DNA of 64,000 bases, taken from the sequence record PZ445444.1; one strand, given 5' to 3'. Under the pieces are notes generated by a model. It had not been told where the DNA came from. It searched no databases and saw only the letters and a list, made by a program, of their open reading frames with translations. The position numbers were made by a program, and so were the translations under genes. Numbering within the stretch: the first letter of the stretch is position 1; every line of letters begins with the position of its first letter. Shown in pieces: positions 9,020 to 27,417 of the stretch. The stretch is from a phage.

Positions 9020-9391
9020 ATGTTAGTAAAAGGTACCCGCACAGTCAAACAACGTATTGAAGTTGAGATTGATGATTGTGAGCTGAAGCATATTTTACGG
9101 TCATGCTCCAACGTTTTGCTCCTTAGTATTCTTCAGGAGCGAGCGGAGAACGAGTTCTTAAATGCATTGGCAGGCCGTCCCGGTGACTTCTGTGTGCGTA
9201 AGCGTGGTGACAACAAGTCATGGTTGTGGGAAATCGATGCCGACTGGGATTACCACAAAAATGAGGGTATAGATGAGCCTATTCGTGAACTGACTGACAA
9301 AGAGATTCAGATGTACAATGAAGTTTGTCATTGGGCAACACGCCAACAAATTTACCTAGACCCTGTGTGGCTGATTGAAAATAGCCATTGA
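9020..9391 (+). CDS. hypothetical protein (123 aa)
   Basis: ATG at 9020 preceded by AGGAGG; inside track ORF 8993..9391. Confidence 0.55.
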   Translation: MLVKGTRTVKQRIEVEIDDCELKHILRSCSNVLLLSILQERAENEFLNALAGRPGDFCVRKRGDNKSWLWEIDADWDYHKNEGIDEPIRELTDKEIQMYNEVCHWATRQQIYLDPVWLIENSH

Positions 9392-9416
9392 CAAGAAGTA
9401 AGATTAGATATAAGAT
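9388..9416 (+). promoter_or_regulatory. sigma70-like promoter
   Basis: TTGACA-N17-TAAGAT upstream of the gene at 9468. Confidence 0.5.
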
Positions 9417-9467
9417 GCTTCGCACAAACAGAGTGTTGATTTTTAAATAACTAAGGAGACTGCTAAG

Positions 9468-9722
9468 ATGAAAATTACTTTGAAGTCAGAATGCGTTGCA
9501 AATGACCGAGCTTTTAAAGATTGCACAGTCGGTGCAATTTATGAAGCAGAGTTTTGTGAGAACCCTCTGGTAAAAGCCCTCCTGGAAGAAGGGGCCCCTT
9601 TATCACAAGAAGAGATCGATGAGCTGGAAAACTCAGCACAGTGCCTTACCTTTAAAGATGATGAAGGAGACTCTGTCTGGTGCACTGTTAATGAAGTAGT
9701 TTTTGTAAAACCTGAACATTAA
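9468..9722 (+). CDS. hypothetical protein (84 aa), paralog of 9786..10046
   Basis: RBS AAGGAGA; shares DRAFKDCT...GD.V.CT pattern with the next gene. Confidence 0.6.
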   Translation: MKITLKSECVANDRAFKDCTVGAIYEAEFCENPLVKALLEEGAPLSQEEIDELENSAQCLTFKDDEGDSVWCTVNEVVFVKPEH

Positions 9723-9725
9723 TAC

Positions 9726-9754
9726 TTGACAACAGTGATGGAGCCTAATATAAT
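9726..9754 (+). promoter_or_regulatory. sigma70 consensus promoter
   Basis: TTGACA-N17-TATAAT exact consensus hexamers. Confidence 0.6.
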
Positions 9755-9785
9755 GGCCCTATCAAAACGAAAGGGGACCACAGCA

Positions 9786-10046
9786 ATGACCAAACAATAC
9801 CAACGAATTAAAGCCAAGGTTAAGCCAGACTATCTGGAGAAAGACTCTGCTTTTCGGGACTGCACAGCCGACAAAGTTTACACAGGGGCTGTCCTGTTGA
9901 ACGATAAACTTGAAGTAGATGTGCTGGGTAAAGAGGCCGTTATCGAGGATGACAACGGTGACTGTGTTTTCTGCACCACACGGGAGCTAGAAGTCTTAGA
10001 ATACTTCGGTGAAATCTTCAACTCTTTAGACGACGAGGAAGCGTGA
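9786..10046 (+). CDS. hypothetical protein (86 aa), paralog of 9468..9722
   Basis: ATG at 9786 after AAAGGGGA; the track start at 9726 is the promoter -35 TTG. Confidence 0.55.
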   Translation: MTKQYQRIKAKVKPDYLEKDSAFRDCTADKVYTGAVLLNDKLEVDVLGKEAVIEDDNGDCVFCTTRELEVLEYFGEIFNSLDDEEA

Positions 10047-10435
10047 TGAAAAATATTTGGGATATTGATATCTTTGAAGCCTCTAAGCTTGACGGTGCTG
10101 ATGGAGTTATTATGGTGTCTGATGGCAAGGCAACACTAACTTCCGGAGATATCATCTATGCCTTGGACGAGCTGGCGCTTCTGAAATCTACCGGTAACAC
10201 TTTAGAGGAGCGTCTTCAAGGCTTCGCCTTCAAAGAAGGCACAAATACCGCCATGATGTGCACCACACGGACAGTTCAGGTTGGTAACGGTATCTATATG
10301 ATCATTGCGGTGTGTCCTAAATTCAGCAACGTCAATAAAGATGATGCTGACGCTGTCAACGATGTGGTTGTTCTCTTCGTAGGTGACGCTATGGCAGACC
10401 TGATGAATGCAGGAGAAGCAGCAAATGAAGACTGA
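10043..10435 (+). CDS. hypothetical protein (130 aa)
   Basis: ATGA overlap with upstream stop; no recognisable motif. Confidence 0.55.
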   Translation: MMKNIWDIDIFEASKLDGADGVIMVSDGKATLTSGDIIYALDELALLKSTGNTLEERLQGFAFKEGTNTAMMCTTRTVQVGNGIYMIIAVCPKFSNVNKDDADAVNDVVVLFVGDAMADLMNAGEAANED

Positions 10436-10727
10436 AAACATTACCCCAGCAGGGTTCTTAAAAGTATACCGTGAACTGCTATATACTACAGAGGACAGTG
10501 TTCTAGAGTATCCAGAATATCTTTTGCTGTATAAGTATCTGCAGGAGGCTGGTGAAAATCTGCCAGTTAGTGCAGAAGGTGGTCCGAACTGGATATACAG
10601 CGCATGGAGAAAGGTTGACATTCTCCCAGATCCAGGTAAAGATATGGTAGTTTGGCAGCTTATCAACAACATTGGGATTCCAATCTTTGATGAAGCTGTT
10701 AAAATCTATTTTGAACTTGACGATTAA
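10425..10727 (+). CDS. hypothetical protein (100 aa)
   Basis: ATG at 10425 preceded by AGGAGA; alternative start at 10407. Confidence 0.5.
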   Translation: MKTENITPAGFLKVYRELLYTTEDSVLEYPEYLLLYKYLQEAGENLPVSAEGGPNWIYSAWRKVDILPDPGKDMVVWQLINNIGIPIFDEAVKIYFELDD

Positions 10728-10744
10728 TATCAGGAGACCTTAAG

Positions 10745-10990
10745 ATGACTGAAGTAGTTGCTCGCGCAGGACAGAAAGTACGTTGTGTTGAAGTAGGTTT
10801 TGGTGGCAAAGGGTGTCAAAACTTGACTCAAGGTAAGGAATACGCTGTTATTTCTGGTGGTGGCGACGAGAGTATTGTGTTCGAGGGCCACATCCTGGAT
10901 GCTGAAAACTTTGAAATCTTTGACGACGATGGAGATCCGATCACCTGCCTGCTGGACGGGAATTGGGGAACTTTCGAAGTGATTGGCTAA
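10745..10990 (+). CDS. hypothetical protein (81 aa)
   Basis: RBS GGAGA upstream of ATG. Confidence 0.55.
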   Translation: MTEVVARAGQKVRCVEVGFGGKGCQNLTQGKEYAVISGGGDESIVFEGHILDAENFEIFDDDGDPITCLLDGNWGTFEVIG

Positions 10991-11073
10991 CAAATACCTA
11001 TTGTAATTTACAGAAGGGGATGCTAAAATAGTGTCTCCTTCTATGTTGTTCAAATAAAATCGGAGATTCCATA

Positions 11074-11439
11074 ATGGAACAAATGAACGATCAAGCGTCG
11101 GTTGCGATGAACGAGCAAGAACAACCTCAAGAATTTTTCTTAGGGTTAAGTAAAGATCAAGTGTCTCTTCTGCTAGTGCTTTCTTCTTTCATGGGAAGAC
11201 TTCAGGAGCTCACACAACAGCCAGAGGCTGAACAATTATTCCAAGCTTTGCGTGAAGAAGAAAAATATCGTCGTTTGGACTATGCCTTAGGTTGGGTAGC
11301 TCAACAACGAGATATGCTGATGGCCCTCTCTGGGACCACAAGTTTTGCAATGGGCCTGCTGGCTCAAGTTCAGGACAAATTAATTCAAGCAGGGTTTGCA
11401 CACACGGCAAACACTAACGAAGAACAAGGAGACAAATAA
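11074..11439 (+). CDS. hypothetical protein (121 aa)
   Basis: RBS GGAGA; stop overlaps the SSB start. Confidence 0.55.
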   Translation: MEQMNDQASVAMNEQEQPQEFFLGLSKDQVSLLLVLSSFMGRLQELTQQPEAEQLFQALREEEKYRRLDYALGWVAQQRDMLMALSGTTSFAMGLLAQVQDKLIQAGFAHTANTNEEQGDK

Positions 11440-12665
11440 TGAGCGTTATTCAACAATTCGCTAACCCGATGAATCCGCGTGAAACTGTTTTACTGGCTCA
11501 CGGCATGATTAAACGTGTCAGCATCAAGCCTATCAAAGGTGCTGATCCTACAACAGGTATTAAAACCACTGTGTGGCAAGGTAAGAAAATTGAATCCAGC
11601 CACACCATCTCTTTACTGATTTCTGAACTGGATTCCTCTGATAACCTGCTTCAAGGTGGTGAAGAAGTTTGGATCAGCATGGGTGATAAGCTGCTTAAAC
11701 CTGGTCATCAAGACTCTGTCTCTGTTAAAATTGATGACAAGTGGGAAACCGTAACGCCGGGATGGATCGTAAATATCCCTTTGAAGGCAAACGAGCATAA
11801 CGGTAAGACCTATTACAAAGGCTCACTGGCTAAGATGGTCAAGCTGGGTGCAGGAGAGGCTCCAGCAGCGACTCAGCAGCAAAAACAGCAACAAGGTGCA
11901 CAATCACAAGGCCAGAAGCAGAAACCTCAGCAGAATGCCAATCAGGACGTTTTACGCATCTATGGTGATGTGACTCAGATTGTTGGCAACGTGGTTACTG
12001 TTAATGACCACAAGATTGGCGAAGGTGCTATGGTTGTAACTGATGAGCAGCTTAAAGACCTGGTGGTAGGTGGTCGTGTTGCAGCCATTGTTGACAAAGA
12101 CACCGGAAACATTATCAGTGGTTTCAAAGCCTATCCCCCTAAGGCAGAGAACGGCACTCAAGGCTCCGGTGGCAAGCGTAAATCCTCTTACGACCCTATC
12201 GGTGTGGAAACGGGGCATAGCATCAATGCGTTGCAGATCATCCTGGATCGCGGGTTTAAGGTAGACGACCCACTGGGCGTGGCTAAAACACTGCACGTAG
12301 TCACCATCGAGCTTAAGAAAGAGTATGCTCAAGCCACCAACCGAACTGAAGATGAAGTAGGTGCCAGTGTCGGTAATGCGGTGTTGAACGCTTGTCGCCG
12401 TATTGACAAGAAAACGAAAGTTGATGATTTTGCAGCGGCAATTACTGCAGAAGCAAAAGATGTCTTGACTAATCTGGCTGAGCCGTTGTACGATTGGATC
12501 AAGAACGGTGCTGGGTCAACTGACCATCAAGAACCTCAGGCTGCCAAACAGGAAGCAGCTCCACAGCAAAACACTGTAGACGCTCCTCCTGTAAATGACG
12601 AGGAAGATGACCCGATGGATCAGAATCCAGCACAGTATGAGTTCGATGACTCGATCCCTTTCTGA
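11439..12665 (+). CDS. single-stranded DNA-binding protein (candidate)
   Basis: 408 aa; Q/G-rich linker; acidic C-terminal tail ending DDSIPF, resembling the SSB C-terminal DDDIPF motif; sits in the replication module. Confidence 0.6.
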   Translation: MSVIQQFANPMNPRETVLLAHGMIKRVSIKPIKGADPTTGIKTTVWQGKKIESSHTISLLISELDSSDNLLQGGEEVWISMGDKLLKPGHQDSVSVKIDDKWETVTPGWIVNIPLKANEHNGKTYYKGSLAKMVKLGAGEAPAATQQQKQQQGAQSQGQKQKPQQNANQDVLRIYGDVTQIVGNVVTVNDHKIGEGAMVVTDEQLKDLVVGGRVAAIVDKDTGNIISGFKAYPPKAENGTQGSGGKRKSSYDPIGVETGHSINALQIILDRGFKVDDPLGVAKTLHVVTIELKKEYAQATNRTEDEVGASVGNAVLNACRRIDKKTKVDDFAAAITAEAKDVLTNLAEPLYDWIKNGAGSTDHQEPQAAKQEAAPQQNTVDAPPVNDEEDDPMDQNPAQYEFDDSIPF

Positions 12666-12673
12666 GGTCAGTT

Positions 12674-13252
12674 ATGAAATGCAAACGTTGTGGAGAGGAC
12701 AAGGAGGCCTCCGACTTCTACACCAGTAACAAATCAACGTGCAAAGAGTGTTGCAAGAAGGCCAGCAGGGAGGCTGACCAATTTGCTAGAGACTCTTCAG
12801 AAAAAGGTGTAATACGTGTGTTGTACAAGGCTCAAAAGTGCAACAGCAAGCAAAGAGGTCACCCTCCTCCGACTTACACCAAAAAAGAGTTTAAGGAGTG
12901 GCTATACCTTAACGGTTACAAAGAGTTGTATGATCAGTGGGTAGCCAGCGGATACGACAAAAGGAAAAAGCCTTCTTGTGACAGGATAGATGATTTCAAA
13001 GGGTACTCTTTTGATAATATCCGTTTAACGACTTGGGGAGAAAATAAAGACAAGCAGACAGAGGATATTCTGTTACATAGAAGCACCAGCGGTAGACGGT
13101 GCAAAAATGTAAGGAGGTTGGACATGAATGGTAACGTTCTTAAAGAATGGGTATCTCACAACTCTTGTAGCAGAGAAACCGGAATATATATTGGTTACTA
13201 CATTCATGAAAAAATTCCAGCTCCAGATGGATACTTATACGAATACTTTTAA
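12674..13252 (+). CDS. zinc-ribbon protein, possible degenerate HNH-type endonuclease
   Basis: N-terminal CxxC...CxxC; segment CDRIDDFKGYSFDNIRL resembles an HNH core with H replaced; followed by the repeated terminator. Confidence 0.4.
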   Translation: MKCKRCGEDKEASDFYTSNKSTCKECCKKASREADQFARDSSEKGVIRVLYKAQKCNSKQRGHPPPTYTKKEFKEWLYLNGYKELYDQWVASGYDKRKKPSCDRIDDFKGYSFDNIRLTTWGENKDKQTEDILLHRSTSGRRCKNVRRLDMNGNVLKEWVSHNSCSRETGIYIGYYIHEKIPAPDGYLYEYF

Positions 13253-13267
13253 CACATAACTAACATA

Positions 13268-13296
13268 GCCCTGCCCGAAAGGGTGGGGCATTTTTG
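13268..13296 (+). terminator. intrinsic terminator, second copy of the 973-1000 element
   Basis: gccctgccc-gaaa-gggtggggc followed by a ttttt run. Confidence 0.6.
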
Positions 13297-13314
13297 TATA
13301 AGGAGATCTGAAAA

Positions 13315-13731
13315 ATGACATTAGAAGATATCATTGTTAAACCTGAGAACTATGACCAATACAACCTGTCAACTCAATCTGTAGACCTTGGATGCGCCAC
13401 GGTCAGTGCGTGGCTGGTTAACGGAAAAGAGCTGGATAAATGCTTAGAAGCTCACATGTCTATTAACAAGTTTCTGGATGAAAATACTCACTGGCTTGAG
13501 GGTGCAGGCGTATATGCTTCATGGTTGGAGAGTATGGGATTCGACTACCAATCTGAAGAGGGGTGGTGGAGCTATTTAGCTATCTGTCCAGAGACGCTAC
13601 AATGCTTCATGAAATATTCTGAAGATTTGGAGTACCGGGCGGTGGTTGATAGTGCTATTGCCCGTTATAGCCGTAAACCTTTTTCCCACGACATTAAAAC
13701 TGTGGAAGAATTTGTTGAAGTTTTCTGTTGA
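13315..13731 (+). CDS. hypothetical protein (138 aa)
   Basis: RBS AAGGAGA upstream of ATG. Confidence 0.55.
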   Translation: MTLEDIIVKPENYDQYNLSTQSVDLGCATVSAWLVNGKELDKCLEAHMSINKFLDENTHWLEGAGVYASWLESMGFDYQSEEGWWSYLAICPETLQCFMKYSEDLEYRAVVDSAIARYSRKPFSHDIKTVEEFVEVFC

Positions 13732-13757
13732 CACAGATTGAAAGGTGTGCAATTATA
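13728..13757 (+). promoter_or_regulatory. sigma70-like promoter
   Basis: TTGACA followed 17-18 nt later by AATTAT/ATTATA; upstream of the three-gene unit ending with the macrodomain gene. Confidence 0.45.
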
Positions 13758-13827
13758 ACTTCATAGAACGGGAGGACGTGATGAACGAAGAAAACTGGGA
13801 TGTATAACTAACAGGAGGCCACTGCCC

Positions 13828-14025
13828 ATGATTTATCGAATCCGTGTAAGAGAAGATGCACCAGGCTGTTACTTTGACTGGCGTGGGTGGTGGTTTATCC
13901 ACCCAATGGATGGACTCACAGATAGAATGCTGGATGCTGCCCTTTATACAGATACCGACATAGAATATAATCTCTATCTGAAGGACGGTATAGATAACGG
14001 CCTGTTTGAAGCAATTCCTGTGTAA
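13828..14025 (+). CDS. hypothetical protein (65 aa)
   Basis: RBS AGGAGG; first gene of the putative operon. Confidence 0.5.
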   Translation: MIYRIRVREDAPGCYFDWRGWWFIHPMDGLTDRMLDAALYTDTDIEYNLYLKDGIDNGLFEAIPV

Positions 14026-14093
14026 GAGACTGTGATAGCTATGTTTTATGATCTTCCTGTAGCACCACCACCTGTTGAACCCGGAGAACTAAG

Positions 14094-14519
14094 ATGATCT
14101 ATGAAATGCCAAAACTGATTCGTGACGATGCCCAAAACGCCCACACCTTTATCATGGGCAAGCGCATGGATATTATTTGTCATAAAGATTTCTGGGAAGG
14201 TAGTTACTTCACAGAATATTTTGGTAAACTGGATAATGGTCTGCTGATCCAGTTCTACACCGATGCGGAAAACAATATCTGCTGGGAGTTCGAAACTGAA
14301 GATATCCATAAACTTTTCACCTTCCTAGGTATTAAGGTTGAGGCCAAGTTTGAAGAAGGCGAGTGCGACGATTGTGGATTCTACGAGGTAACAGATTTCT
14401 ATCTCCCAAGTGGTGAGAACCTTTACTATGAAAGCCACTTCGGCAACTCAAATATGCCACAAGGTTGGGATGAGTTTTTTGAAATTGCGGAAGAGGAGCT
14501 GACATACCGTGATTATTGA
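14094..14519 (+). CDS. hypothetical protein (141 aa), coupled to the macrodomain gene
   Basis: Overlaps the macrodomain start by 11 nt; no recognisable motif. Confidence 0.55.
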   Translation: MIYEMPKLIRDDAQNAHTFIMGKRMDIICHKDFWEGSYFTEYFGKLDNGLLIQFYTDAENNICWEFETEDIHKLFTFLGIKVEAKFEEGECDDCGFYEVTDFYLPSGENLYYESHFGNSNMPQGWDEFFEIAEEELTYRDY

Positions 14520-14967
14520 TACTGTAGCGGGAGATTTAATCTCCCTTTTTAAGAGCGGTGCTGGTCACCTGATCCACGGTTGTAACTGCTTTCATACAAT
14601 GGGTGCAGGCATAGCGAAAGATATTGCCCGTGAGTTCCCTCAAGCACTGGCAGCCGACAAAGAGACTGCCTATGGTAATCTGGACAAGCTGGGTATGTTT
14701 TCTTGTTGGGAGCATTTTGCCAAGAACAGGGTCGTATATGGAATCAACCTGTATACCCAGTTCTACCCAGGGCCCAATGCTGAATACTTCTCAATAATGA
14801 AAGGTTTTGAGCGAGTCAACGAGGTATTCAAAGGTGTGTCATTGCCGTTCTACATTCCTAAAATTGGATGCGGTATTGGCGGTCTAAAGTGGGAACATGT
14901 AGAAGATGTAATTAATCTTGCAACCACAGATATTGATGTGGTTGTAGTAGAGTACAAAAAGTGTTGA
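14509..14967 (+). CDS. macrodomain protein (TARG1/DarG-like ADP-ribose hydrolase, candidate)
   Basis: Segments HGCNCFHTMGAGIAKDIAREFP and FYIPKIGCGIGGLKWEHVEDVI match the two glycine-rich macrodomain motifs of the TARG1/OARD1 type. Confidence 0.7.
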   Translation: MIIDTVAGDLISLFKSGAGHLIHGCNCFHTMGAGIAKDIAREFPQALAADKETAYGNLDKLGMFSCWEHFAKNRVVYGINLYTQFYPGPNAEYFSIMKGFERVNEVFKGVSLPFYIPKIGCGIGGLKWEHVEDVINLATTDIDVVVVEYKKC

Positions 14968-14992
14968 CGACCATCTTCTGAGGTGATATAGT
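14964..14992 (+). promoter_or_regulatory. sigma70-like promoter
   Basis: TTGACG-N17-TATAGT. Confidence 0.55.
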
Positions 14993-15218
14993 TTCCACAA
15001 CAACTAAGAGAGGAGAGCACTGTGGAGACTAAAATCTTAATTCTTGCTGTGGTAGATACAACCGAAGGAGCTATATTCGAATCTGCAGGGGGGTATTTCT
15101 ACCTACCATACGGAAAAAGAACTTCCGAGCCAAGTAAAGATTCAATCCTCAAGGTGTTCCCGTGTGCTTTCTGGCTGGAGATTTTGGTATAAGATTGCAG
15201 AGGATTTGGGAGAGAATT

Positions 15219-15413: not shown

Positions 15414-15417
15414 AAGA

Positions 15418-21040: not shown

Positions 21041-21301
21041 ATGCGTAAATTAAAAAATTTTGATAAAGTTGATGTTGTCCTGAATAATTTTTACTACTGC
21101 AACAACAAGGCCATTTGGTGGCGTGATAGTTCCACCGATAAAGTTAAAGCTCGCTTTCTCCAAGGGCACTGGCAAGGCCGTCCAGTGATTAAAATACTGG
21201 GGCAACTGGTAGCGTTTAAAAATTGCCGCCGTGTTGATGACGTTGAAGAGATCTTGAACATTTTACGCCACAATAATTTAAAAAATAGTGTTGACAAGTA
21301 A
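21041..21301 (+). CDS. hypothetical protein (86 aa)
   Basis: RBS AAAGGAG upstream of ATG. Confidence 0.55.
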   Translation: MRKLKNFDKVDVVLNNFYYCNNKAIWWRDSSTDKVKARFLQGHWQGRPVIKILGQLVAFKNCRRVDDVEEILNILRHNNLKNSVDK

Positions 21302-21318
21302 ATCTCGATAAGTATACT
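21291..21318 (+). promoter_or_regulatory. sigma70-like promoter with GC-hairpin leader
   Basis: TTGACA-N16-TATACT, then ggcgggaa-aac-ttcccgcc hairpin. Confidence 0.6.
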
Positions 21319-21375
21319 TAAACACACAGGCGGGAAAACTTCCCGCCACTAACAAAGAAAATAGGAGAAAATATC

Positions 21376-21999
21376 ATGACCACCGTTAACATTACCACAG
21401 GTTACAATTTATCTTTCGACGTGCTGACCGACGAACAAAAAGAAAAAGCTATTGAAATGGTCCGCGAAAGAGAAGAACACAGCGGGGATAATTTTTTTGC
21501 AGAAAGTGTAATTGAACACTATAAAGAATATGTCTTTCCAGAGTACGGCCTTGAAGATACCGAAGTACGTTGGTCCGGCTTTTGGTGTCAAGGCGATGGC
21601 GCGTCAATCAGTGCTGAAAACGTGGATTTAGAAAAATTCTTGCGTAAAGTAAAGGCCCTGACCAAGTTCCGATCAATTCGTCACTTGTTCGGCACAATGC
21701 ACGATGGCGAGTTATCAGCCAGTGTTGAACGTATCCCGTTTAGCCATTATCATCACGAAAACACAATAGGAGGGTGCATCGATACTAATTGGCTAGACCT
21801 GACCACCAAGCAAGAGGACAAAGTTGAAGAGCTGGAAGAGCTGATCACCGAGACGGTACGGGAGCTATCCCGCAAGGTTTACGTAGACCTGGAGGAGGCC
21901 TATCTTGAACAGTTTACTACCGAAAACCTGATCGGCCTTATTGAAGCCAATGATTGGCGGTTTGATGTGGATGAATATGGGGAGATGAGTTTTTCATAA
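21376..21999 (+). CDS. hypothetical acidic protein (207 aa)
   Basis: RBS AGGAGA; no confident motif. Confidence 0.6.
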   Translation: MTTVNITTGYNLSFDVLTDEQKEKAIEMVREREEHSGDNFFAESVIEHYKEYVFPEYGLEDTEVRWSGFWCQGDGASISAENVDLEKFLRKVKALTKFRSIRHLFGTMHDGELSASVERIPFSHYHHENTIGGCIDTNWLDLTTKQEDKVEELEELITETVRELSRKVYVDLEEAYLEQFTTENLIGLIEANDWRFDVDEYGEMSFS

Positions 22000-22007
22000 A
22001 TAAAGTG

Positions 22008-22035
22008 TTGCAATAATCTAAAAACCTGCTATATT
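22008..22035 (+). promoter_or_regulatory. sigma70-like promoter
   Basis: TTGCAA-N16-TATATT, followed by ggggc...gcccc leader hairpin. Confidence 0.5.
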
Positions 22036-22088
22036 AAAAACTCAAGGGGCGAGATGACTTGCCCCCACAAAACAAAGAGGAAAACATC

Positions 22089-22469
22089 ATGAAAAACACT
22101 ACTAAAGCTATTGACACCGTTATGTTTAACCTGGTTACATTCCGTGAAGATATGAAAGATCTTCCACGTGAAACAGTGTGCGACCATATCGAAAACTATC
22201 GCAAACTAATCAAAGAGTTGCCTTTAAAACGTGACCAGTACGCGGCTAACGCTATGCTTAACGCCATGATCAAAAAGATGATCCAGTGTGATTTAACTCT
22301 GGCCTATGATTATGCAGGCGGTCGTTTTGCAGTATACAATCAGCCCGTGCCCGGTATGAGCACCACCGAAGAATTGCACGCGTTAAATCTGAAACAAGAT
22401 GTATGGGATAACATGCCCCGCGTGGTGGTGTGGGCAGAAAGCGGAAAGATTTACGGCGATAATTTTTAA
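22089..22469 (+). CDS. hypothetical protein (126 aa)
   Basis: ATG at 22089 after AAAGAGGAAAA. Confidence 0.55.
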   Translation: MKNTTKAIDTVMFNLVTFREDMKDLPRETVCDHIENYRKLIKELPLKRDQYAANAMLNAMIKKMIQCDLTLAYDYAGGRFAVYNQPVPGMSTTEELHALNLKQDVWDNMPRVVVWAESGKIYGDNF

Positions 22470-22533
22470 TCAGGTAACAGGCGGCATATTTGCCGCCTTA
22501 TTGTTAAACAGAACTGCAAAAGAGGTACATAGA

Positions 22534-22905
22534 ATGGAATTTATTATTTTGGCTGTAGTAGTTGCCTTGTTCAACGCCTGGATCGCTGGCAAGATGGGTA
22601 GATCCGCTTTTTTATGGTTTATTATATCTATTTTCCTGGGGGTGGTTGCAACTATTGTACTTGTTATCCTTGCAATTGTTGACAAGGGGAATAATAGAAA
22701 GGGTAAAGTATTTTCAGACCTGTACGACGCTCAAACATTTGTCAACGCCTACTACAGCGATCTTCCAGTCTCCCTACGTTGCAGCCTTGCACAACAGGTT
22801 TTCGATGAAGCTAAAACCAGAGATCACGCCCATGAGATTTGTTTAACTGAGGCGGATCGCCTATTTGAGAGGAATAGAAAATATGTGGACCAGCCGTTTA
22901 AATAA
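22534..22905 (+). CDS. hypothetical membrane protein (123 aa, two predicted helices)
   Basis: ATG at 22534 after AAGAGG; hydrophobic stretches FIILAVVVALFNAWIA and FLWFIISIFLGVVATIVLVILAIV. Confidence 0.55.
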   Translation: MEFIILAVVVALFNAWIAGKMGRSAFLWFIISIFLGVVATIVLVILAIVDKGNNRKGKVFSDLYDAQTFVNAYYSDLPVSLRCSLAQQVFDEAKTRDHAHEICLTEADRLFERNRKYVDQPFK

Positions 22906-23124
22906 TGCCACGTTAATTAACCCCTTTAGTGAAGATTTGAAGCCAGCCGCCTGGCGGGATGGATTCAATAACGAAAGCTTTATTTTCAGGCCTGATCTTA
23001 AGGAATTTTATAACAATGGATCGAACAACGACAGAGATAATTTTTCTTGTAATGTGCGTGGTGATAATACTCCTGGGGGCCATTGCAAACCACGTCACTG
23101 CTAACAGGAGGAAAGGGGGAGACG

Positions 23125-23244
23125 ATGACACCTAAGGATAAGCCCCGCACCGATAAGGCGCGCCGTGTTATGGTATGGCTTGAGATCATCGCCCTTGAAA
23201 TATTGTTAGGCGTAGGGATGTATTTTATCGCTGTAAGTAATTGA
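23125..23244 (+). CDS. hypothetical small membrane peptide (39 aa)
   Basis: ATG preceded by AGGAGGAAAGGGGGAG; hydrophobic C-terminal half. Confidence 0.35.
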   Translation: MTPKDKPRTDKARRVMVWLEIIALEILLGVGMYFIAVSN

Positions 23245-23296
23245 TAACGGCCCCGATCCCTGGGGCCTAACTTTTCAAATTTTTTTCTCCCTGAGT

Positions 23297-23325
23297 GTTG
23301 CAATCCGATCCAGAATATGGATAAT
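23297..23325 (+). promoter_or_regulatory. sigma70-like promoter
   Basis: TTGCAA-N17-ATAATA. Confidence 0.4.
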
Positions 23326-23384
23326 AACAATCAACGGGGAGACACTCCCCACCGCATAGACAAAGTTCCAAAAGGAGAAACAAA

Positions 23385-23586
23385 ATGAGCAACAATATCC
23401 GCGTTATTAACTTCAAAAAAGAAGAAAAAAATTGCCGTGCTGATTGACGGTCAAGAAATCTTTAAAGGTGATTATGAAGATCATCAAACGGCGATTAGTA
23501 TCACTCGCGTGATTGGTTACCATAATTTTTACCCTCAAGGCGCTGAGGCAGCAGTAAAACGAATTAAAGAGATTGTAGGCCTGTAA
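23385..23586 (+). pseudogene. small gene interrupted by a +1 frame change at an A7 run
   Basis: ATG 23385 after AAAGGAGAAA; frame stops at 23447 just after the A7 run at 23425-23431; a downstream frame runs uninterrupted to 23586. Removing one A gives a continuous 66-aa ORF. Confidence 0.45.
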
Positions 23587-23588
23587 AA

Positions 23589-23636
23589 TTTATTTTTAGA
23601 TGGCCTTGACTCCAGGGCCATCAATAAAGTAAATTT
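23589..23636 (+). promoter_or_regulatory. conserved hairpin element, copy 4
   Basis: tatttttagatggccttgactccagggccatcaataaagtaaat. Confidence 0.45.
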
Positions 23637-23677
23637 AAACCCTGTTAAAATAATCAGTGCAAAAAGGAGTAATGATC

Positions 23678-23977
23678 ATGTTTATCCAGGCTAATAATCT
23701 TTATTTCTTTGATGGTCAGATCGTAGACGGCGTGGAGGTGGAAATCACCGGGTGCCCTGGCGGTCAGGTTATGACTTTTCGGAATAATGCCTTTGATGAT
23801 TCTCATATCGTTATGAGAATGGAAGTTAGTAAGCTGGATGACAAGAAAACACTCATTGATTATTCCGTGAAAGATCATCCAGACTACCACATGATCTATG
23901 GTGATTTGTGCATTGTTGACCGTGACAAGGTGGGCGGCATTGTGATCGCTATTGTGAACGATGTTTTCTCAAACTAA
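23678..23977 (+). CDS. hypothetical protein (99 aa)
   Basis: ATG at 23678, 8 nt after AAGGAG. Confidence 0.55.
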   Translation: MFIQANNLYFFDGQIVDGVEVEITGCPGGQVMTFRNNAFDDSHIVMRMEVSKLDDKKTLIDYSVKDHPDYHMIYGDLCIVDRDKVGGIVIAIVNDVFSN

Positions 23978-23994
23978 TTTCAGCAGGTGATTTT

Positions 23995-24345
23995 ATGAAA
24001 GTAAAACTATATTACCTTAATGAGCTTAACCCCCTTGCCCAGGTCCGCGCCCTGGCTAATACCTTGATTTGTGAGAAATCTGTATATTGTGTTGAGCTTA
24101 ACTCCATGCGTGAACGTCTCAAAGGTGGTTACTTTGACATCCATGCTGCAATCAACGGCCTGAATATGGAATTTATCCGCTTACGTAACAGCCGCCAGAA
24201 TCTGGCAAGAATGGAACAAGATCCGGCCCACCTTCGTAAGCTGGTTATTGAAAATCATCTAATGTTTAATGCCGATGGTGATTATTACCATTTTCACCGT
24301 AAACGCTGGTACCGTAGCGGCAATATAGGAAAGAATGCAAAATAA
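23995..24345 (+). CDS. hypothetical protein (116 aa)
   Basis: ATG start; no recognisable motif. Confidence 0.55.
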   Translation: MKVKLYYLNELNPLAQVRALANTLICEKSVYCVELNSMRERLKGGYFDIHAAINGLNMEFIRLRNSRQNLARMEQDPAHLRKLVIENHLMFNADGDYYHFHRKRWYRSGNIGKNAK

Positions 24346-24382
24346 GGCCCCTGGCAGGGCCTGCAGCGATATAATCACATAA

Positions 24383-24414
24383 AGGCTATGCGGTTGCATA
24401 GCCTTTATTATTTT
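24383..24414 (+). terminator. intrinsic terminator
   Basis: aggctatgc-ggtt-gcatagcct followed by ttattatttt. Confidence 0.6.
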
Positions 24415-24463
24415 GGCGTTACAGCGGCCCCCAAGGCGCTTAAAAAAATTTTTAAAGAAGTAC

Positions 24464-24492
24464 TTGCATCAAGTCCTACAATATGGATAATA
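24464..24492 (+). promoter_or_regulatory. sigma70-like promoter (weak)
   Basis: TTGCAT-N17-ATAATA. Confidence 0.4.
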
Positions 24493-24550
24493 AAGGGTGT
24501 CGGGGGGGTGAGGCCTCCAATCATTAACCGGATAGATAGGAGTTAAAACC

Positions 24551-24835
24551 ATGGCTATTGTTACCGTTGGCGATGTAGTAGAAATGGAAGCCAAATACTT
24601 AAAAGCTGGTATGCATATCATACGGAATGATCAAGAATTGTTATTAACCATGGTTGAATATAATCCCGGTCAGGATTATCCAAGCACTGACTACTTTTTC
24701 CAGTATGTTGATGAAGAATTAAAAGAGGATGAGGCTTATCAGGGTGAATTTTGTAATTTCTTTTGCCCTGATGAGGTTGTAAAAGTTATCTATCAACCTG
24801 GCGTACCTTTCCCGCTGCACGCTATCAACAAATAA
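24551..24835 (+). CDS. hypothetical protein (94 aa)
   Basis: RBS TAGGAG upstream of ATG. Confidence 0.55.
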   Translation: MAIVTVGDVVEMEAKYLKAGMHIIRNDQELLLTMVEYNPGQDYPSTDYFFQYVDEELKEDEAYQGEFCNFFCPDEVVKVIYQPGVPFPLHAINK

Positions 24836-24890
24836 ACCTGGCGGGGCCGAAAAGGCCCCCAATTATGAAAATAAAGAGAGGCAAATCATC

Positions 24891-25124
24891 ATGATGGAAC
24901 AAATTAAACGCGCCGAGGCTATTAATGGCAACGTGATCTATTTTGTCAGCAAAAACGAAAAAGGCGTACCCTATGCGGCGGTAATAGTACAGCCTGACGG
25001 CGATTATTGGTGTACTGTGTACGGCGCTTATTCTTTTGGGCGTCCAGTGCATGATAAAATTTTGAAAGTAGCGAACCCTACCGGGAAAAATATCACAGCA
25101 GAAAAATTTTTTGAAAATAGTTGA
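24891..25124 (+). CDS. hypothetical protein (77 aa)
   Basis: RBS AAAGAGAGG upstream of ATG. Confidence 0.5.
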   Translation: MMEQIKRAEAINGNVIYFVSKNEKGVPYAAVIVQPDGDYWCTVYGAYSFGRPVHDKILKVANPTGKNITAEKFFENS

Positions 25125-25149
25125 CATGACCATATAAGACTGTAGTATA
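25121..25149 (+). promoter_or_regulatory. sigma70-like promoter with GC-hairpin leader
   Basis: TTGACA-N16/17-TAGTAT, then ggggc-aa-gcccc hairpin. Confidence 0.5.
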
Positions 25150-25195
25150 TAAATCAAAGGGGCAAGCCCCACCAACCACAAAGAGGATAAAAATC

Positions 25196-25375
25196 ATGGC
25201 TATTATTGCAAAGACTGAGATCGTAGGCTTGGATTCTATTCTCCTCGCATATGAGGAAGCTATAGAAATGTATGTGGTTTCCTATGGTGAGTATATCCGT
25301 GAATATAAATCTATTGATCTGGCTTTTGAATGTTATATTCGCCAGGTTAATAAAGCGTACGATGATTATCGTTAA
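25196..25375 (+). CDS. hypothetical small protein (59 aa)
   Basis: ATG after AAAGAGGATAAAAA; below the ORF-track cutoff. Confidence 0.45.
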   Translation: MAIIAKTEIVGLDSILLAYEEAIEMYVVSYGEYIREYKSIDLAFECYIRQVNKAYDDYR

Positions 25376-25465
25376 AATAGTTTGAAAACAAACAACCATC
25401 TTACAAAGCATAATACATAAGGCGGTGGAATGGTCCGCCACCTGGAACAAGAAGAGGAAAACAAA

Positions 25466-25570
25466 ATGAAACAGAAATTAATTGATGCGGTGATCCTGGT
25501 TATTGCCCTGGGTATTGGCCTGATTGCAACCATGGCTAATGTGATCTTGTCTTCCAACGGTATCGGGTGA
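25466..25570 (+). CDS. hypothetical small membrane peptide (34 aa)
   Basis: ATG after AGAAGAGGAAAA; product MKQKLIDAVILVIALGIGLIATMANVILSSNGIG. Confidence 0.35.
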   Translation: MKQKLIDAVILVIALGIGLIATMANVILSSNGIG

Positions 25571-25579
25571 GGTTGGCAA

Positions 25580-25795
25580 ATGATCACTAACAAAACAGGC
25601 AAAACGGAATTTTTACGCAACTTACAGATCGGCAAGCCTGAGATCTGGTATTGCACTAAAACACCACGTGACGAAATGAAAGACTTCACCGCCACGCTGC
25701 AACGGGTAAAGATATCCATCACGCAGAAAAAGGCCTTGATAGTGGTGGAAGGTGAGATCCCTCAAACCGTTGTTATAGTTGAGCGTACAGCATAG
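25580..25795 (+). CDS. hypothetical protein (71 aa)
   Basis: ATG start closely following the small peptide ORF. Confidence 0.5.
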   Translation: MITNKTGKTEFLRNLQIGKPEIWYCTKTPRDEMKDFTATLQRVKISITQKKALIVVEGEIPQTVVIVERTA

Positions 25796-25886
25796 TTTAA
25801 TTTATACCGATACCCGAAAATTAACCAACAAAGCATAAACAGGCGGTTACCGCCGCCTTAAACGTAGCAGAAAGAGGATAGACACA

Positions 25887-26171
25887 ATGAAAAAGATGAT
25901 CGCAGTGGTTGCCCTGGTTGTTGGACTTAATGCGCCTGTAATGGCTAAAGAGCTGGCAAAAGAGGTTAATCTAACGGATATTCATGCCGTCAATCGAATC
26001 GGGGTTACTTATCGCTTATGCCTTGCCGCTAAAACTTTTAAGGACGGCACGACAGAGTACTACGGATTCGAAGGTGTCCGGTGCGGTGAACTTGCTCGCG
26101 ACCTTAAGGAAGATCCAGACCTGGAGGATCTGCCCATCACCGTAAACGGGAAAACTTACGTAAACCGTTAA
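25887..26171 (+). CDS. hypothetical secreted protein (94 aa)
   Basis: RBS AAAGAGGA; N-terminal signal-peptide-like MKKMIAVVALVVGLNAPVMA. Confidence 0.55.
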   Translation: MKKMIAVVALVVGLNAPVMAKELAKEVNLTDIHAVNRIGVTYRLCLAAKTFKDGTTEYYGFEGVRCGELARDLKEDPDLEDLPITVNGKTYVNR

Positions 26172-26173
26172 CC

Positions 26174-26308
26174 ATGATAAAGATAATCATCACCTTGGGG
26201 ATTGTGGCGGGATCGCTGGCGCTCTTTCTCCTTATGGTTAGGTATGTGCTGATCGGTATTGTCCTGGTAGTCAGTGATCTATTGGAAACGGTTGGCACCT
26301 TGTTTTAA
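26174..26308 (+). CDS. hypothetical small membrane peptide (44 aa)
   Basis: ATG 2 nt after the upstream stop; product almost entirely hydrophobic. Confidence 0.35.
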   Translation: MIKIIITLGIVAGSLALFLLMVRYVLIGIVLVVSDLLETVGTLF

Positions 26309-26320
26309 AGAGCGGTAAAA

Positions 26321-26512
26321 ATGAATATCGAACAAGTTAGAAAGGTATTGGCGGTACTGCGTTATCATAATCATAGAAAGGTCATAGACGATCCTGATTA
26401 TGTCGATTCAAGCCTGGAAGGGGATACACTACAAGCCATAAGTAACATGCAAGAATTGCTAAAGCGCATGACAGAGAAAAACCGACCGGACTACATAGGC
26501 GAAAAAATATAA
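26321..26512 (+). CDS. hypothetical protein (63 aa)
   Basis: ATG start; followed by a terminator. Confidence 0.5.
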   Translation: MNIEQVRKVLAVLRYHNHRKVIDDPDYVDSSLEGDTLQAISNMQELLKRMTEKNRPDYIGEKI

Positions 26513-26526
26513 TCCTTATAAACTAC

Positions 26527-26556
26527 AAAACAGGGCTTGCAATGGTCCTGTTTTTT
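26527..26556 (+). terminator. intrinsic terminator (imperfect stem)
   Basis: aaaacagggc ... ggtcctgtttt followed by a T-run. Confidence 0.45.
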
Positions 26557-26571
26557 GTTATACTTGTTTCA

Positions 26572-26622
26572 CGGCAGGCACCTGGTGACGGGGGGAGACA
26601 ATCACCGGGTGTGCCTGCTATA
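26572..26622 (-). repeat. structured hairpin repeat element, copy 3 (inverted relative to copies at 17.4-17.6 kb)
   Basis: Reverse complement reads ccggtgattgtctccccccgtcaccaggtgcctgccgt, near-identical to the 17531-17620 copy. Confidence 0.5.
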
Positions 26623-26640
26623 TAAAAACTATAAAAACCG

Positions 26641-26669
26641 TTGACATCTGCCAGGTGGTGGGGTAGCAT
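26641..26669 (+). promoter_or_regulatory. sigma70-like promoter
   Basis: TTGACA-N17-TAGCAT. Confidence 0.5.
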
Positions 26670-26724
26670 TTATCTCGAAGGGGGCAAAAGCGCCCACACA
26701 ACAACCGGAAGAGAGGAAAACGCC

Positions 26725-26997
26725 ATGTTAAGCTGGATTAACCAAGAAGTTGAATCACGTTTCAATGCTATTTGGGATCTCATCGAAAAAGAGGACGGAA
26801 CATCAAGCCCTTATCTCAATAATCTTGAATTCCATTTCGTGGAAGCGATGAACGCAGAACATGATCACGAAGGTGGTGCGGATGAATTCGCTAAAGGATA
26901 TGGCTTCAACAATGCCAACGAAATGATCGAGGCGGTTGTACTCCAGGCTGAGGAAGATTATCAATTAAAAACGCTTGAATTCTGCCGCCGTAAGTAA
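26725..26997 (+). CDS. hypothetical acidic protein (90 aa)
   Basis: ATG at 26725 after GAAGAGAGGAAAA. Confidence 0.55.
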   Translation: MLSWINQEVESRFNAIWDLIEKEDGTSSPYLNNLEFHFVEAMNAEHDHEGGADEFAKGYGFNNANEMIEAVVLQAEEDYQLKTLEFCRRK

Positions 26998-27059
26998 TAA
27001 GATAATGACACAGGCCAAAAGGCCCACTAAACAAAAACCACATAAAGAGGAAAAACATC

Positions 27060-27323
27060 ATGAAACGCCTTGATCAGCTCAAATTAGTTCAATATATGGC
27101 TTATCGTGTTCTTGAAGTCCAGAAAGGTAGCAAAAAAGAGGTTTGCGAGAAAGCTTATAAGATCTTCACTCGCAAAAAAGATGATTGGATGTTACGCCAG
27201 ACCAAAAAAGCCGATATCTTGGGGTACCTGGAAGAAGAGATCCGGCTTGAAGAGCAAGAAGAGATCCGCCGCAGTGAGGCAGATTATCAGGCAGCTTGGG
27301 AAAACTGGATGAATAACAAATAA
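27060..27323 (+). CDS. hypothetical protein (87 aa)
   Basis: RBS AAAGAGGAAAAA upstream of ATG. Confidence 0.55.
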   Translation: MKRLDQLKLVQYMAYRVLEVQKGSKKEVCEKAYKIFTRKKDDWMLRQTKKADILGYLEEEIRLEEQEEIRRSEADYQAAWENWMNNK

Positions 27324-27388
27324 TACAACAAGTTACATGGTCAGGGGCAATAAAGCCCCTTGATCACATAAAAATTATGCCATCCTTG

Positions 27389-27417
27389 GTTGACAGGGAT
27401 CGGCAGTTTTGCTATAT
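27389..27417 (+). promoter_or_regulatory. sigma70-like promoter
   Basis: TTGACA-N17-TATATT. Confidence 0.6.

Follow-up and report, generated by a model that had tools for sequence, protein, structure and literature searches.

In T4-type phages (RB49/phi1, PST/T4 and nt-1/KVP40), orphan genes lying in variable regions are accompanied by PeSLs (promoter-early stem-loops), cassettes in which an AT-rich tract is followed by a sigma70 promoter, a G(n)-loop-C(n) stem-loop, a Shine-Dalgarno (SD) sequence and an ATG (Arbiol et al. 2010, PMC2839356; Comeau et al. 2014, PMC4122927). Stem-loops are also known at the 5′ end of transcripts: secondary structure in this position stabilizes E. coli mRNAs, since a single-stranded 5′ end is required by both RppH and RNase E (review PMC3997798). 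For phage rV5, 33 sigma70 promoters and 20 terminators were predicted in the genome paper (Kropinski et al. 2013, PMC3606486, Table S4). The rV5 promoters and terminators, the PeSL cassettes and the 5′ stem-loops are hence already known, and here we compare them with a 64,000-nucleotide stretch of phage DNA (record PZ445444.1), the whole of which we call the window, and within it with the small genes of 8.5-27.4 kb and the promoters and hairpins in front of them. The best reading that our analysis offers is that this region is a variable ('hyperplastic') stretch of small orphan genes, built of PeSL-like regulatory cassettes. What we observe directly is a set of sequence features enriched over chance, with a fixed spacing, conserved stems, and indel junctions that fall within the motifs.

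Judged by sequence identity, the window is that of an rV5-like coliphage of the genus Vequintavirus, ~97% identical to Escherichia phage nom. Indeed, positions 18000-24000 matched 122 phage records, the top one being nom (97.7%). The wider stretch 9000-28000 matched 227 records, most of which cover it in 2-7 pieces, and the early region is therefore mosaic among close relatives. The + strand holds every gene in 8.2-27.9 kb, 3′ of the DNA polymerase gene, and the sign of the GC skew flips near 29 kb, at the point where transcription changes orientation. The gene model was built from the list of open reading frames (ORFs), SD scoring and the annotation of nom, and contains ~50 small + strand genes in 8.5-27.4 kb. 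The 10 genes tested directly 3′ of cassettes all belong to PHROG families of unknown function, and none of the 10 had a Pfam match above threshold. For comparison we used the orthologous early regions of ten Vequintavirus relatives, in which each cassette was anchored by its flanks. A protein-anchored search of IMG/VR gave two close contigs, and a second search one 87% relative and three contigs from other genera.

Scanning 9000-28000 for TTGACA-N16-18-TATAAT with at least 10 of 12 matching bases yielded 18 + strand and 2 - strand sites, where dinucleotide shuffles gave 3.3±1.9. Directly 5′ of gene starts we curated 23 sigma70-type promoter-like sites on the + strand of 8.5-27.4 kb, every one of which has TTG in the -35 box, A2 and T6 in the -10 box, and a spacer of 16-18 nt. 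The 25 nt upstream of them are 70% A+T, compared with 57% for the region. These sites resemble the near-consensus sigma70 promoter of a PeSL, and the tracts before them its AT-rich upstream part. The preliminary description of this DNA had counted about 20 repeats of a cassette with promoter, leader hairpin and ribosome-binding site (RBS), and had assigned an own promoter to most small genes. The promoters are indeed that numerous and dense on one strand, but the hairpin is present after only 8 of the 23, and about half of the ~50 genes have a promoter of their own. Twelve promoters (P164-P224) and six of the seven terminators of this stretch correspond to entries of rV5 Table S4 (PMC3606486). 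That catalogue gives promoters and terminators in separate lists, and fixed promoter-proximal hairpins, the 51-nt repeat described below and a link with gene gain or loss are all absent from it.

The RBS proved as stereotyped and purine-rich as had been proposed. Its consensus over 27 genes in 18-28 kb is caaaaaa.aaAaAgGagaAAA.AtcATGAa, the 30 nt 5′ of start codons in this interval are 45% A, and a repeat finder recovers families of AAGAGGAAAACATCATGAAA-type RBS. As in PeSLs, a stereotyped RBS and start codon stand at the 3′ end of the motif, adjoining orphan genes in a mosaic region.

We scored a leader hairpin as present when its folding free energy (dG) was at or below -5 kcal/mol and it started 9-13 nt beyond the final base of the -10 box. 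Such a hairpin (class A) follows eight of the 23 promoters, where 0.16±0.40 were expected from shuffled leaders and 0.58±0.76 from random anchor positions. Five of these hairpins begin 11 nt from the -10 box, and the remaining ones 10, 12 and 13 nt from it. All eight lie within 18.7-27.0 kb, and none of the nine promoters of 8.5-18.3 kb has one; about eight promoters lack any stem-loop. The strong leaders at 18784, 21329, 22046 and 23336 fold better than their shuffles (z -3.1 to -3.7), and in these four the predicted pairing is confined to the hairpin, which leaves SD and ATG unpaired. The predicted 5′ untranslated regions measure 41-53 nt with a hairpin, as against 23-47 nt without. Across the region, most strong hairpins (dG <= -9) were found in intergenic DNA, which makes up 18% of it. 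These results temper the earlier statement that the leader begins frequently with a hairpin, since only four of the eight are strong and none occurs below 18.7 kb. Among the five examples then cited, those at 18784, 21324, 23330 and 25157 are leader hairpins (the last three start at 21329, 23336 and 25159), although the one at 25157, drawn as ggggc-aa-gcccc with an impossible 2-nt loop, folds as GGGG-CAAG-CCCC at 25159-25170. The fifth, at 22480, is a terminator, equivalent to rV5 t184: gene 22089-22469 ends 10 nt before it, no promoter precedes it, and TTATTGTT comes directly behind.

A ninth hairpin (25421-25442) stands behind a mis-spaced promoter, at 25382. The spacer between its -35 and -10 boxes is 21 nt in the window and in relatives L010 and L012, and 17 nt in L011, which has a 4-nt deletion; in this difference we may see a cassette promoter that is naturally polymorphic between an on and an off state.

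Leader hairpins are trailed by A/C-rich sequence and have no U-tract, and are therefore no canonical intrinsic terminators on the + strand. As antisense terminators they were likewise rejected: 18802 and 21347 were flagged on the - strand, with tails that are weakly T-rich, the phi92-type copies are trailed by CTATGTGAT on that strand, and the presence of only 2 strong promoter-like sites on the - strand also opposes this reading. Their stems, of 4-10 bp, are too short for RNase III sites. If transcription starts 7-8 nt after the -10 box, a hairpin that begins 11 nt after it would be placed at +4/+5, with 3-4 nucleotides of the 5′ end left unpaired. Here lies the main difference from PeSLs, whose stem-loop mostly overlaps the -10 box or lies between it and the -35 box, while in class A it lies 11 nt past the -10 box, inside its own transcript. 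We analysed all leaders by per-sequence folding and custom scans in place of a covariance model of the promoter-hairpin cassette, because the MAFFT seed of 20 paralogous cassettes misregistered stems of unequal length.

The hairpins are conserved as structures. Following 9 cassettes through 8-10 relatives, we found that nearly every orthologue keeps the hairpin in place while the loop changes. Orthologues of 22046 have the loops ATGA, ACGTC or GACGT, with a G·U pair turned into A-U, and at 23336 GGGGAG-ACA-CTCCCC becomes GGGGA-GCAA-TCCCC. In relatives, 25159 reads GGGGC-AACAA-GCCCC (-10.5), 26680 reads GGGCA-AAAG-TGCCC and 27013 reads GGGCC-AAAA/GGGA-GGCCC (-10.7). As the third stem pair of 24503, four relatives have G-C, four sequences (the window among them) have G·U, and L017 has A-U. 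The exceptions are L011 at 23336 (stem nearly lost), L016 at 21329 (a G·A mismatch) and L010 at 25159 (a stem-disrupting A). For the hairpin AGGCGGTTACCGCCGCCT at 25841, the L011 orthologue is the exact reverse complement, AGGCGGCGGTAACCGCCT, that is, an in-place inversion that keeps the structure. The 10-nt spacer after the -10 box varies in sequence between cassette families and keeps its length. Stem mismatches that stand between Watson-Crick pairs were G·T/T·G in 5 cases and A·C/C·A in 1 (a relaxed count; the strict criterion leaves 2 events in total). Such an excess of G·U over A·C weakly favours a structure in sense-strand RNA over one in DNA or antisense RNA, and the 5:1 bias is suggestive only.

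The same geometry is found in other phages. We inspected distant loci around homologues of gene 22089 in PD06 (a phi92-like coliphage of 149.5 kb), in Av-05 and in a further phi92-like locus (L020). All three show TTGACA-N16/17-TAnnnT, 'tAtCACATAG', a hairpin and an RBS, in an arrangement more regular than that of the window, with hairpins that include GGCGGGAAA-TGG-TTTCCCGCC and GGGCGGCA-ATAG-TGCCGCCC. Strong promoters carry a hairpin in 9 of 21 cases in PD06, 9 of 21 in L020 and 4 of 11 in Av-05 (shuffle nulls ~0.1). When 14 loci were pooled, the first paired base of 96 folded leaders was found most often 11 nt (28) or 12 nt (17) past the -10 box, which together make 45/96. Among the 49 distinct hairpins, 5′ arms are rich in G/A and 3′ arms in C/T (G-C 190 vs C-G 50; A-T 66 vs T-A 10). 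The - strand of 30-64 kb served as an internal control; only two of its promoter-like sites with at least 10 of 12 bases (36234 and 38688) have even a moderate hairpin at such a distance.

An exact-pattern scan of IMG/VR showed that a comparable cassette occurs before small genes of unrelated, GC-rich mycobacteriophages of Cluster-B type. In Thonko (L036), for example, TTGACAAnnnCGACnnnGTCGGGTAACTT (TTGACA..TAACTT) is followed after 11 nt by GGCGGG-N5-CCCGCC, SD and ATG, and four copies are found in 3.5 kb. Further loci with it are L050/L058/L064/L067 (Imvubu-like), L025/L088, L047 and L053, and the complementary arm was present in 13/13 matches. We found no paper on this mycobacteriophage cassette in the literature. 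Most single matches of the scan are chance by our estimate, and the complementary arm was present in 25/88 matches of the parsed loci. The scan also picked out AT-rich IMG/VR contigs of 134-169 kb (L031, L077, L078, L081, L084 and L089), which carry repeated TTGACAAA..GTGTATAATAGGGGTGGTTGGGCGGGAATAGATAAT with no hairpin.

A second type of cassette (class B) is defined by a 51-nt repeat, TTATTTTTAGATGGCC-TTGACnnCA-GGGCCATCAATAAAGTAAAyT, of which the window has three near-identical copies and a degenerate one. Its hairpin, of 7-10 bp, holds the -35 box in its loop and could therefore act only on RNA that reads through from upstream. In all, five sites have a hairpin over the -35 or the -10 box: 11012, the class B copies at 19217, 19848 and 23586, and 27382. 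Stem-loops of the G(n)-loop-C(n) kind are shared with PeSLs at 8-9 class A cassettes, the four class B copies, 11012 and 27382, and among these only class B, 11012 and 27382 have the stem-loop placed as in a PeSL. The class B elements are annotated as terminators in the Murica record, which is doubtful, as on either strand the stem has its T-run on the 5′ side and A-rich sequence on the 3′ side.

Seven hairpins are true intrinsic terminators with a T-tail (13268, 20808, 22479, 23249, 24379, 26527 and 27906). They share with the leader hairpins a GC-rich stem-loop in intergenic DNA, but differ from them by their 3′ U-tract and by their place after a stop codon rather than after a promoter. Since they divide the region, a single long polycistronic transcript is unlikely. 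On the other hand, many promoters have no terminator before them, so that nested read-through transcripts are expected. The picture of a modular region of individually expressed genes driven by the host polymerase agrees with the sigma70 promoters, the A/T tracts, the strong SDs and the ~50 small genes.

Comparison of the window with its relatives revealed eleven clear gene-sized differences, seven of which have their junctions inside cassette motifs. L016 lacks 19267-19850 (two genes and a promoter) and has one chimeric class B repeat in the place of two; as read from this junction, the deletion would be the product of recombination between class B copies 1 and 2. A promoter and a gene (27362-27906) are missing from L011, L014 and L016, with the 27361/27907 joint inside the similar hairpins AGGGGC-AATAAA-GCCCCT and AAGGGGC-TTAAAG-GCCCCTT. 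Extra genes are found between direct repeats of the RBS/start motif in L010 and L011 (25450-25481) and in L015 and L016 (27026-27063). In JEP1 a replacement of 1.15 kb has its first base precisely where the -35 box of the 25121 promoter begins. Two TTGACA boxes flank an extra gene in L017, where the window retains an orphan TTGACA (20958-20963), and the deletion of L010 and L013 (17769/17940) connects two AACCTGGnnGGG motifs. Cassettes play no part in two of the differences, the endonuclease VII gene (12674-13252) and a deletion inside gene 23995-24345 (23979/24335), and two further junctions, near 26175-26318 and 26514-26553, were assigned to neither group.

Differences between relatives that end inside cassettes may be a further likeness to PeSLs, where an orphan gene between two cassettes is replaced by one chimeric cassette, as in L016. 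The segment inserted in JEP1 (L021, 17625-18771) is 93% identical to Av-05, and window genes in 22.1-26.6 kb (22122-26624) are 76-90% identical to PD06 at the nucleotide level, in a different order. These matches indicate that small-gene modules were exchanged between genera and subfamilies. The setting also differs from that of PeSLs, found in T4-type myoviruses, whereas here we deal with Vequintavirus, phi92-like phages and Av-05; for PeSLs, moreover, terminator activity and mini-circles were shown by experiment. Three points had escaped the preliminary description: the terminator among its examples, the second cassette type with a hairpin over the -35 box, and the gain, loss and swap of genes at cassettes.

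On this reading the cassette is composed of an A/T-rich UP-like tract, a near-consensus sigma70 promoter, a G-rich/C-rich hairpin (at about one in three), an A/C-rich spacer free of structure, and an SD that is purine-rich and strong, with its ATG. We infer that its promoters fire, with early timing, from the predicted start sites, read by unmodified host RNA polymerase, and that the hairpins affect stability or insulation. The class A hairpin would form in sense RNA 3-4 nt from the predicted 5′ end, where it would limit 5′-end-dependent decay by restricting the access of RppH and RNase E; it probably also frees the downstream RBS from long-range pairing, both in its own transcript and in those reading through. 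The class B hairpin would act on read-through RNA only. Being repeated, the cassettes could also give recombination its points of attack, with orphan genes gained, lost and swapped among relatives as the outcome. We lean, with modest confidence, towards 5′ protection together with RBS insulation in nested read-through transcripts as the role of the leader hairpin. A role in the sense RNA close to its 5′ end agrees with the constant distance, with the upkeep of structure where sequence changes, with tolerated G·U pairs and with an open, A/C-rich RBS, and stabilization of the 5′ end, which would apply to only one third of the promoters, is plausible on this basis. The stem-loop of the T7 gene 10 leader is a further example of a 5′-terminal structure. 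Class A would resemble the ompA/papA stabilizers in having a stable hairpin very near the 5′ end and, after it, an accessible RBS; the stabilizers are individual leaders mapped by experiment, and the hairpins described here form a repeated family with predicted starts and a predicted overhang of 3-4 nt (PMC3997798).

Several observations weigh against this interpretation. The hairpin is present at only one third of the promoters, and four of the eight are weak in the window (z +0.65 to -1.35), with orthologues that are often stronger. Emory, Bouvet and Belasco are said to have placed, in 1992, a 5′ overhang of 3-4 nt at the edge of protection. Hairpins without a U-tract also occur away from promoters, at 24345, 24843, 25841 and 27343; as these are promoter-less, and the class B and 11012 hairpins lie outside their own transcript, at least some hairpins must have a role different from protecting a 5′ end. 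Part of the constancy in spacing may go back to one ancestral cassette shared by all, and the ends of gene-sized indels would tend to fall in intergenic DNA through selection for intact genes alone. Finally, the searchable literature holds no transcriptome or start-site data for Vequintavirinae or phi92-like phages.

The same promoter-less hairpins would be accounted for if the structures acted on upstream transcripts, as attenuators or as barriers to 3′ exonucleases that set or stabilize the 3′ end of the preceding mRNA, their proximity to promoters being incidental. This is the function proposed for PeSL stem-loops, which act as terminators or attenuators in lacZ fusions (PMC2839356), and we consider it possible but rather unlikely. 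Read-through is expected at the many promoters with no terminator before them, the class B and 11012 hairpins lie upstream of their own start and could affect only such RNA, and the Murica annotation points in the same direction. Yet the leader hairpins are trailed by A/C-rich sequences (AGCACAAAGG, ACTAACAAAG, CACAAAACAA) instead of a U-tract, and three cassettes (23298, 24464 and 26641) already have a true terminator just upstream. Furthermore, a barrier would be free to sit anywhere from stop codon to RBS, and still the start of the hairpin is fixed 11-12 nt after the -10 box in three genera. The borderline overhang of 3-4 nt, the promoter-less hairpins and the position of class B outside its own transcript keep this explanation alive.

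Inheritance alone could also produce constant spacing and polarity, if the hairpins were functionless relics of terminators, or passengers of a promoter module spread by duplication and recombination. A few hairpin families (GGCGGGAA..TTCCCGCC, GGGCGGCA..TGCCGCCC) are indeed common to paralogous cassettes and to different genera, and in line with this are the four weak hairpins of the window, the nearly lost stem of L011 at 23336 and the mismatch of L016 at 21329. We nevertheless regard this as improbable. Pairing was kept through the replacement of loops, a compensated change of length, the G-C/G·U/A-U series and an inversion, which argues for purifying selection on structure; the 10-nt spacer keeps its length despite the differences in sequence between families, and an analogous arrangement exists in unrelated mycobacteriophages.

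Least probable of all, and to our mind very unlikely, is that the palindromes are protein sites, either for a phage repressor that binds DNA at +5 to +23 and shuts early promoters or for a factor that binds leader RNA (a nuclease, a translational regulator, or antitermination of the N/boxB or put type): a place just 3′ of the start site is typical of operators, the arms GGCGGGAA/TTCCCGCC recur in the window and in phi92-like phages, and some loops are GNRA-like or boxB-like (GAAAA at 24843, GCAA in L015), but the stems are diverse (GGGGAG, GGGGCAA, GGGCA, GGCC, GACGGGGA) and variation is greatest in the loops, which argues against a single sequence-specific reader and makes the operator of a single repressor unlikely, the G·U bias opposes recognition at the DNA level, and a search of the whole window on both strands with Rfam 15 gave no match at any family's gathering score, and no candidate factor was found.

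Returning to 5′ protection and RBS insulation, the occurrence of one geometry in three coliphage genera, the JEP1/Av-05 and PD06 matches and the mycobacteriophage cassettes hint at a broader idea, which is tentative and on balance doubtful. Promoter, TSS-proximal GC hairpin at a fixed distance (TSS, transcription start site) and open strong RBS may constitute a general, convergent module for the expression of phage orphan genes, beyond T4, which would also be a unit of gene transfer between phage subfamilies (Vequintavirinae, phi92-like phages, Av-05), and the +4/+5 position may reflect one shared mechanism, be it that the 5′ end is protected or that RNA polymerase or some common factor interacts with it. 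In our literature search we found no report of a fixed promoter-proximal hairpin common to Vequintavirus, Av-05 and phi92-like phages, of the 51-nt class B repeat, or of gene gain, loss and replacement mapped onto such motifs. If the reading as PeSL-like cassettes holds, the T4-type 'mobile regulatory cassette' principle would reach a second large group of virulent coliphages, with the hairpin at the 5′ end of its own mRNA. It would also provide a compact expression module tried out in nature, which joins a UP-like tract to a consensus promoter, a 5′ hairpin, an A/C-rich spacer and a strong SD, as well as a simple rule for the points of gene exchange in rV5-like and phi92-like therapeutic phages, and ~45 natural hairpin variants with which to probe 5′ structure against mRNA lifetime in infection. 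Current understanding would not be overturned, the rV5 promoters having been predicted earlier.

Table 1. Promoters, hairpins and terminators of the small-gene region. Positions are those of the window; energies are in kcal/mol and z compares folding with shuffles.
Positions	Strand	Element	Remarks	rV5 counterpart
9388-9416	+	Promoter TTGACA-N17-TAAGAT	SD, ATG 9468; no leader hairpin; hairpin 9367-9388 abuts -35	P220
9726-9788	+	Promoter TTGACA-N17-TATAAT (12/12)	RBS, ATG 9786; no hairpin	
11001-11076	+	Promoter TTGTAA-N17-TAAAAT, extended -10 (TG)	14-bp hairpin 11012-11042, -17.4, over -10 (PeSL-type position); ATG 11074	
13268-13289	+	Intrinsic terminator GCCCTGCCC-GAAA-GGGTGGGGC, ATTTTTG		t213
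13728-13756	+	Promoter without leader hairpin	Gene start 13828	
14964-14992	+	Promoter without leader hairpin	Gene start 15022	
15418-15445	+	Promoter (12/12) without leader hairpin	Gene start 15477	
17997-18025	+	Promoter without strong hairpin	A(A/G)GAGGATAAAA-type RBS, ATG 18079	P195A
18280-18308	+	Promoter without strong hairpin	A(A/G)GAGGATAAAA-type RBS, ATG 18341	P195
18746-18825	+	Class A: TTGACA-N16-TAAACT, 10 nt, GGCGGGAA-TGT-TTCCCGCC	Hairpin 18784-18802, -13.1; z -3.06; A/C-rich spacer, SD, ATG 18823	P194
19217-19301	+	Class B copy 1: T-run, hairpin GATGGCC..GGGCCATC, loop TTGACT, N18, TAAACT	Hairpin 19230-19253, -16.3; RBS, ATG 19299	
19419-19501	+	TTGACA-N16-TATAAT (12/12), weakened hairpin GGGAA-AAC-TTCCC	Hairpin 19462-19474, 16 nt after -10; RBS, ATG 19499	P192
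19848-19941	+	Class B copy 2: TTGACC-N18-TAAACT	Hairpin 19861-19884; RBS, ATG 19939	
20182-20261	+	Degenerate class B (69% identity): hairpin GGTGGTCC..GGGCCATC	Hairpin 20195-20218; RBS, ATG 20259	
20808-20827	+	Intrinsic terminator GCCCCGC-CATTGT-GCGGGGC, then TTTTTATTT		
20958-20963	+	Orphan -35 box TTGACA	Site of extra gene in relative L017	
20981-21008	+	Promoter TTGACA-N16-TATACT	RBS, ATG 21041; no hairpin	P186
21291-21378	+	Class A: TTGACA-N16-TATACT, 10 nt, GGCGGGAA-AAC-TTCCCGCC	Hairpin 21329-21347, -13.1; z -3.32; RBS, ATG 21376	P185
22008-22091	+	Class A: TTGCAA-N16-TATATT, 10 nt, GGGGCGAG-ATGA-CTTGCCCC	Hairpin 22046-22065, -13.6, one G·U; z -3.68; AAAGAGGAAAACATC, ATG 22089	
22479-22498	+	Intrinsic terminator/attenuator AGGCGGCA-TATT-TGCCGCCT, then TATTGTT		t184
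23249-23267	+	Intrinsic terminator GGCCCCG-ATCCC-TGGGGCC, then TAACTTTTC		t181
23298-23387	+	Class A: TTGCAA-N16-GATAAT, 10 nt, GGGGAG-ACA-CTCCCC	Hairpin 23336-23350, -9.0; z -3.33; RBS, ATG 23385; gene frameshifted in window	
23586-23674	+	Class B copy 3: TTGACT-N18-TAAATT	Hairpin 23599-23622; RBS, ATG 23672	
24345-24362	+	Promoter-less hairpin AGGCCC-CTGGCA-GGGCCT	No U-tract; terminator 24379-24408 follows	
24379-24408	+	Intrinsic terminator, 13 bp, then TATTTTG		t177
24464-24553	+	Class A (weak here): TTGCAT-N16-GATAAT, 11 nt, GGGGG-GTGAGG-CCTCC	Hairpin 24503-24518, -7.0; RBS, ATG 24551	
24843-24859	+	Intercistronic hairpin GGGGCC-GAAAA-GGCCCC	-13.2; promoter-less, no U-tract; conserved in 10 relatives	
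25121-25198	+	Class A (weak): TTGACA-N16-TAGTAT, 10 nt, GGGG-CAAG-CCCC	Hairpin 25159-25170, -5.4; AAAGAGGATAAAAATC, ATG 25196	P174
25382-25468	+	Degenerate cassette: TTGAAA, 21-nt spacer, CATAAT, GGCGGTGGA-ATGG-TCCGCCACC	Hairpin 25421-25442, one C·A mismatch; GAAGAGGAAAACAAA, ATG 25466; -35 of L011 is TTGACA	
25841-25858	+	Hairpin AGGCGG-TTACCG-CCGCCT	5′ of RBS of gene 25887; no clear promoter	
26527-26554	+	Intrinsic terminator AAAACAGGGCT..GGTCCTGTTTT, TTGTTAT		
26641-26727	+	Class A: TTGACA-N17-TAGCAT, 10 nt, GGGGGC-AAAA-GCGCCC	Hairpin 26680-26695; AGAGAGGAAAACGCC, ATG 26725	P168
26975-27062	+	Class A (weak): TTGAAT-N17-TAAGAT, 9 nt, GGCC-AAAA-GGCC	Hairpin 27013-27024; AAAGAGGAAAAACATC, ATG 27060	
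27343-27470	+	Hairpin AGGGGC-AATAAA-GCCCCT (27343-27360), then promoter TTGACA-N17-TATATT (27390-27418)	-35 in loop of hairpin 27382-27400; RBS, ATG 27468	P164
27906-27925	+	Intrinsic terminator AAGGGGCT-TAAA-GGCCCCTT, then TCTTTTTG	End of + strand unit	t164

Several minor observations were made in the course of this analysis. In the gene behind the 23298 cassette (23385-23586), the window has A7 where five relatives have A6 (GAAGAAAAAAATTG), which shifts the frame of a 66-aa ORF homologous to nom_162; this is either a homopolymer sequencing error or a natural pseudogene. The endonuclease VII-like gene 12674-13252 is present in the window, nom and JEP1 and missing in Murica, C12 and ECO111 5-P. 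Placed between the stop codon of the preceding gene and the terminator at 13268, it looks like a free-standing homing-type insertion. A motif, CCTGGnnGGGCC, occurs in 8 copies (at most 1 mismatch), compared with 2.06±1.29 in shuffles; seven of them are intergenic, on the + strand of 17.6-24.9 kb (for example 17631-17953, 20856, 24350 and 24837), and the 17769/17940 deletion of L010 and L013 brings two copies together.

About 20 records (MG0656xx) labelled 'Campylobacter phage' (UNVERIFIED, host C. jejuni) and classified as Vequintavirus are 94-95% identical to the window region. As they match the region of an E. coli Vequintavirus and are themselves classified in this genus, their host labels look doubtful.

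Lastly, the 348 nt of 17052-17399 contain no convincing ORF. They hold three direct repeats of ~47-57 nt (AGTACTCGATCTGTTTTTCGTTT...), at spacings of 65 and 74 nt, together with a hairpin of 16 bp (17237-17274), and an A15 run follows at 17659-17673. The stretch, unannotated in nom and probably equivalent to the 'non-coding' box of the rV5 map, could be a replication origin or another cis-acting site.

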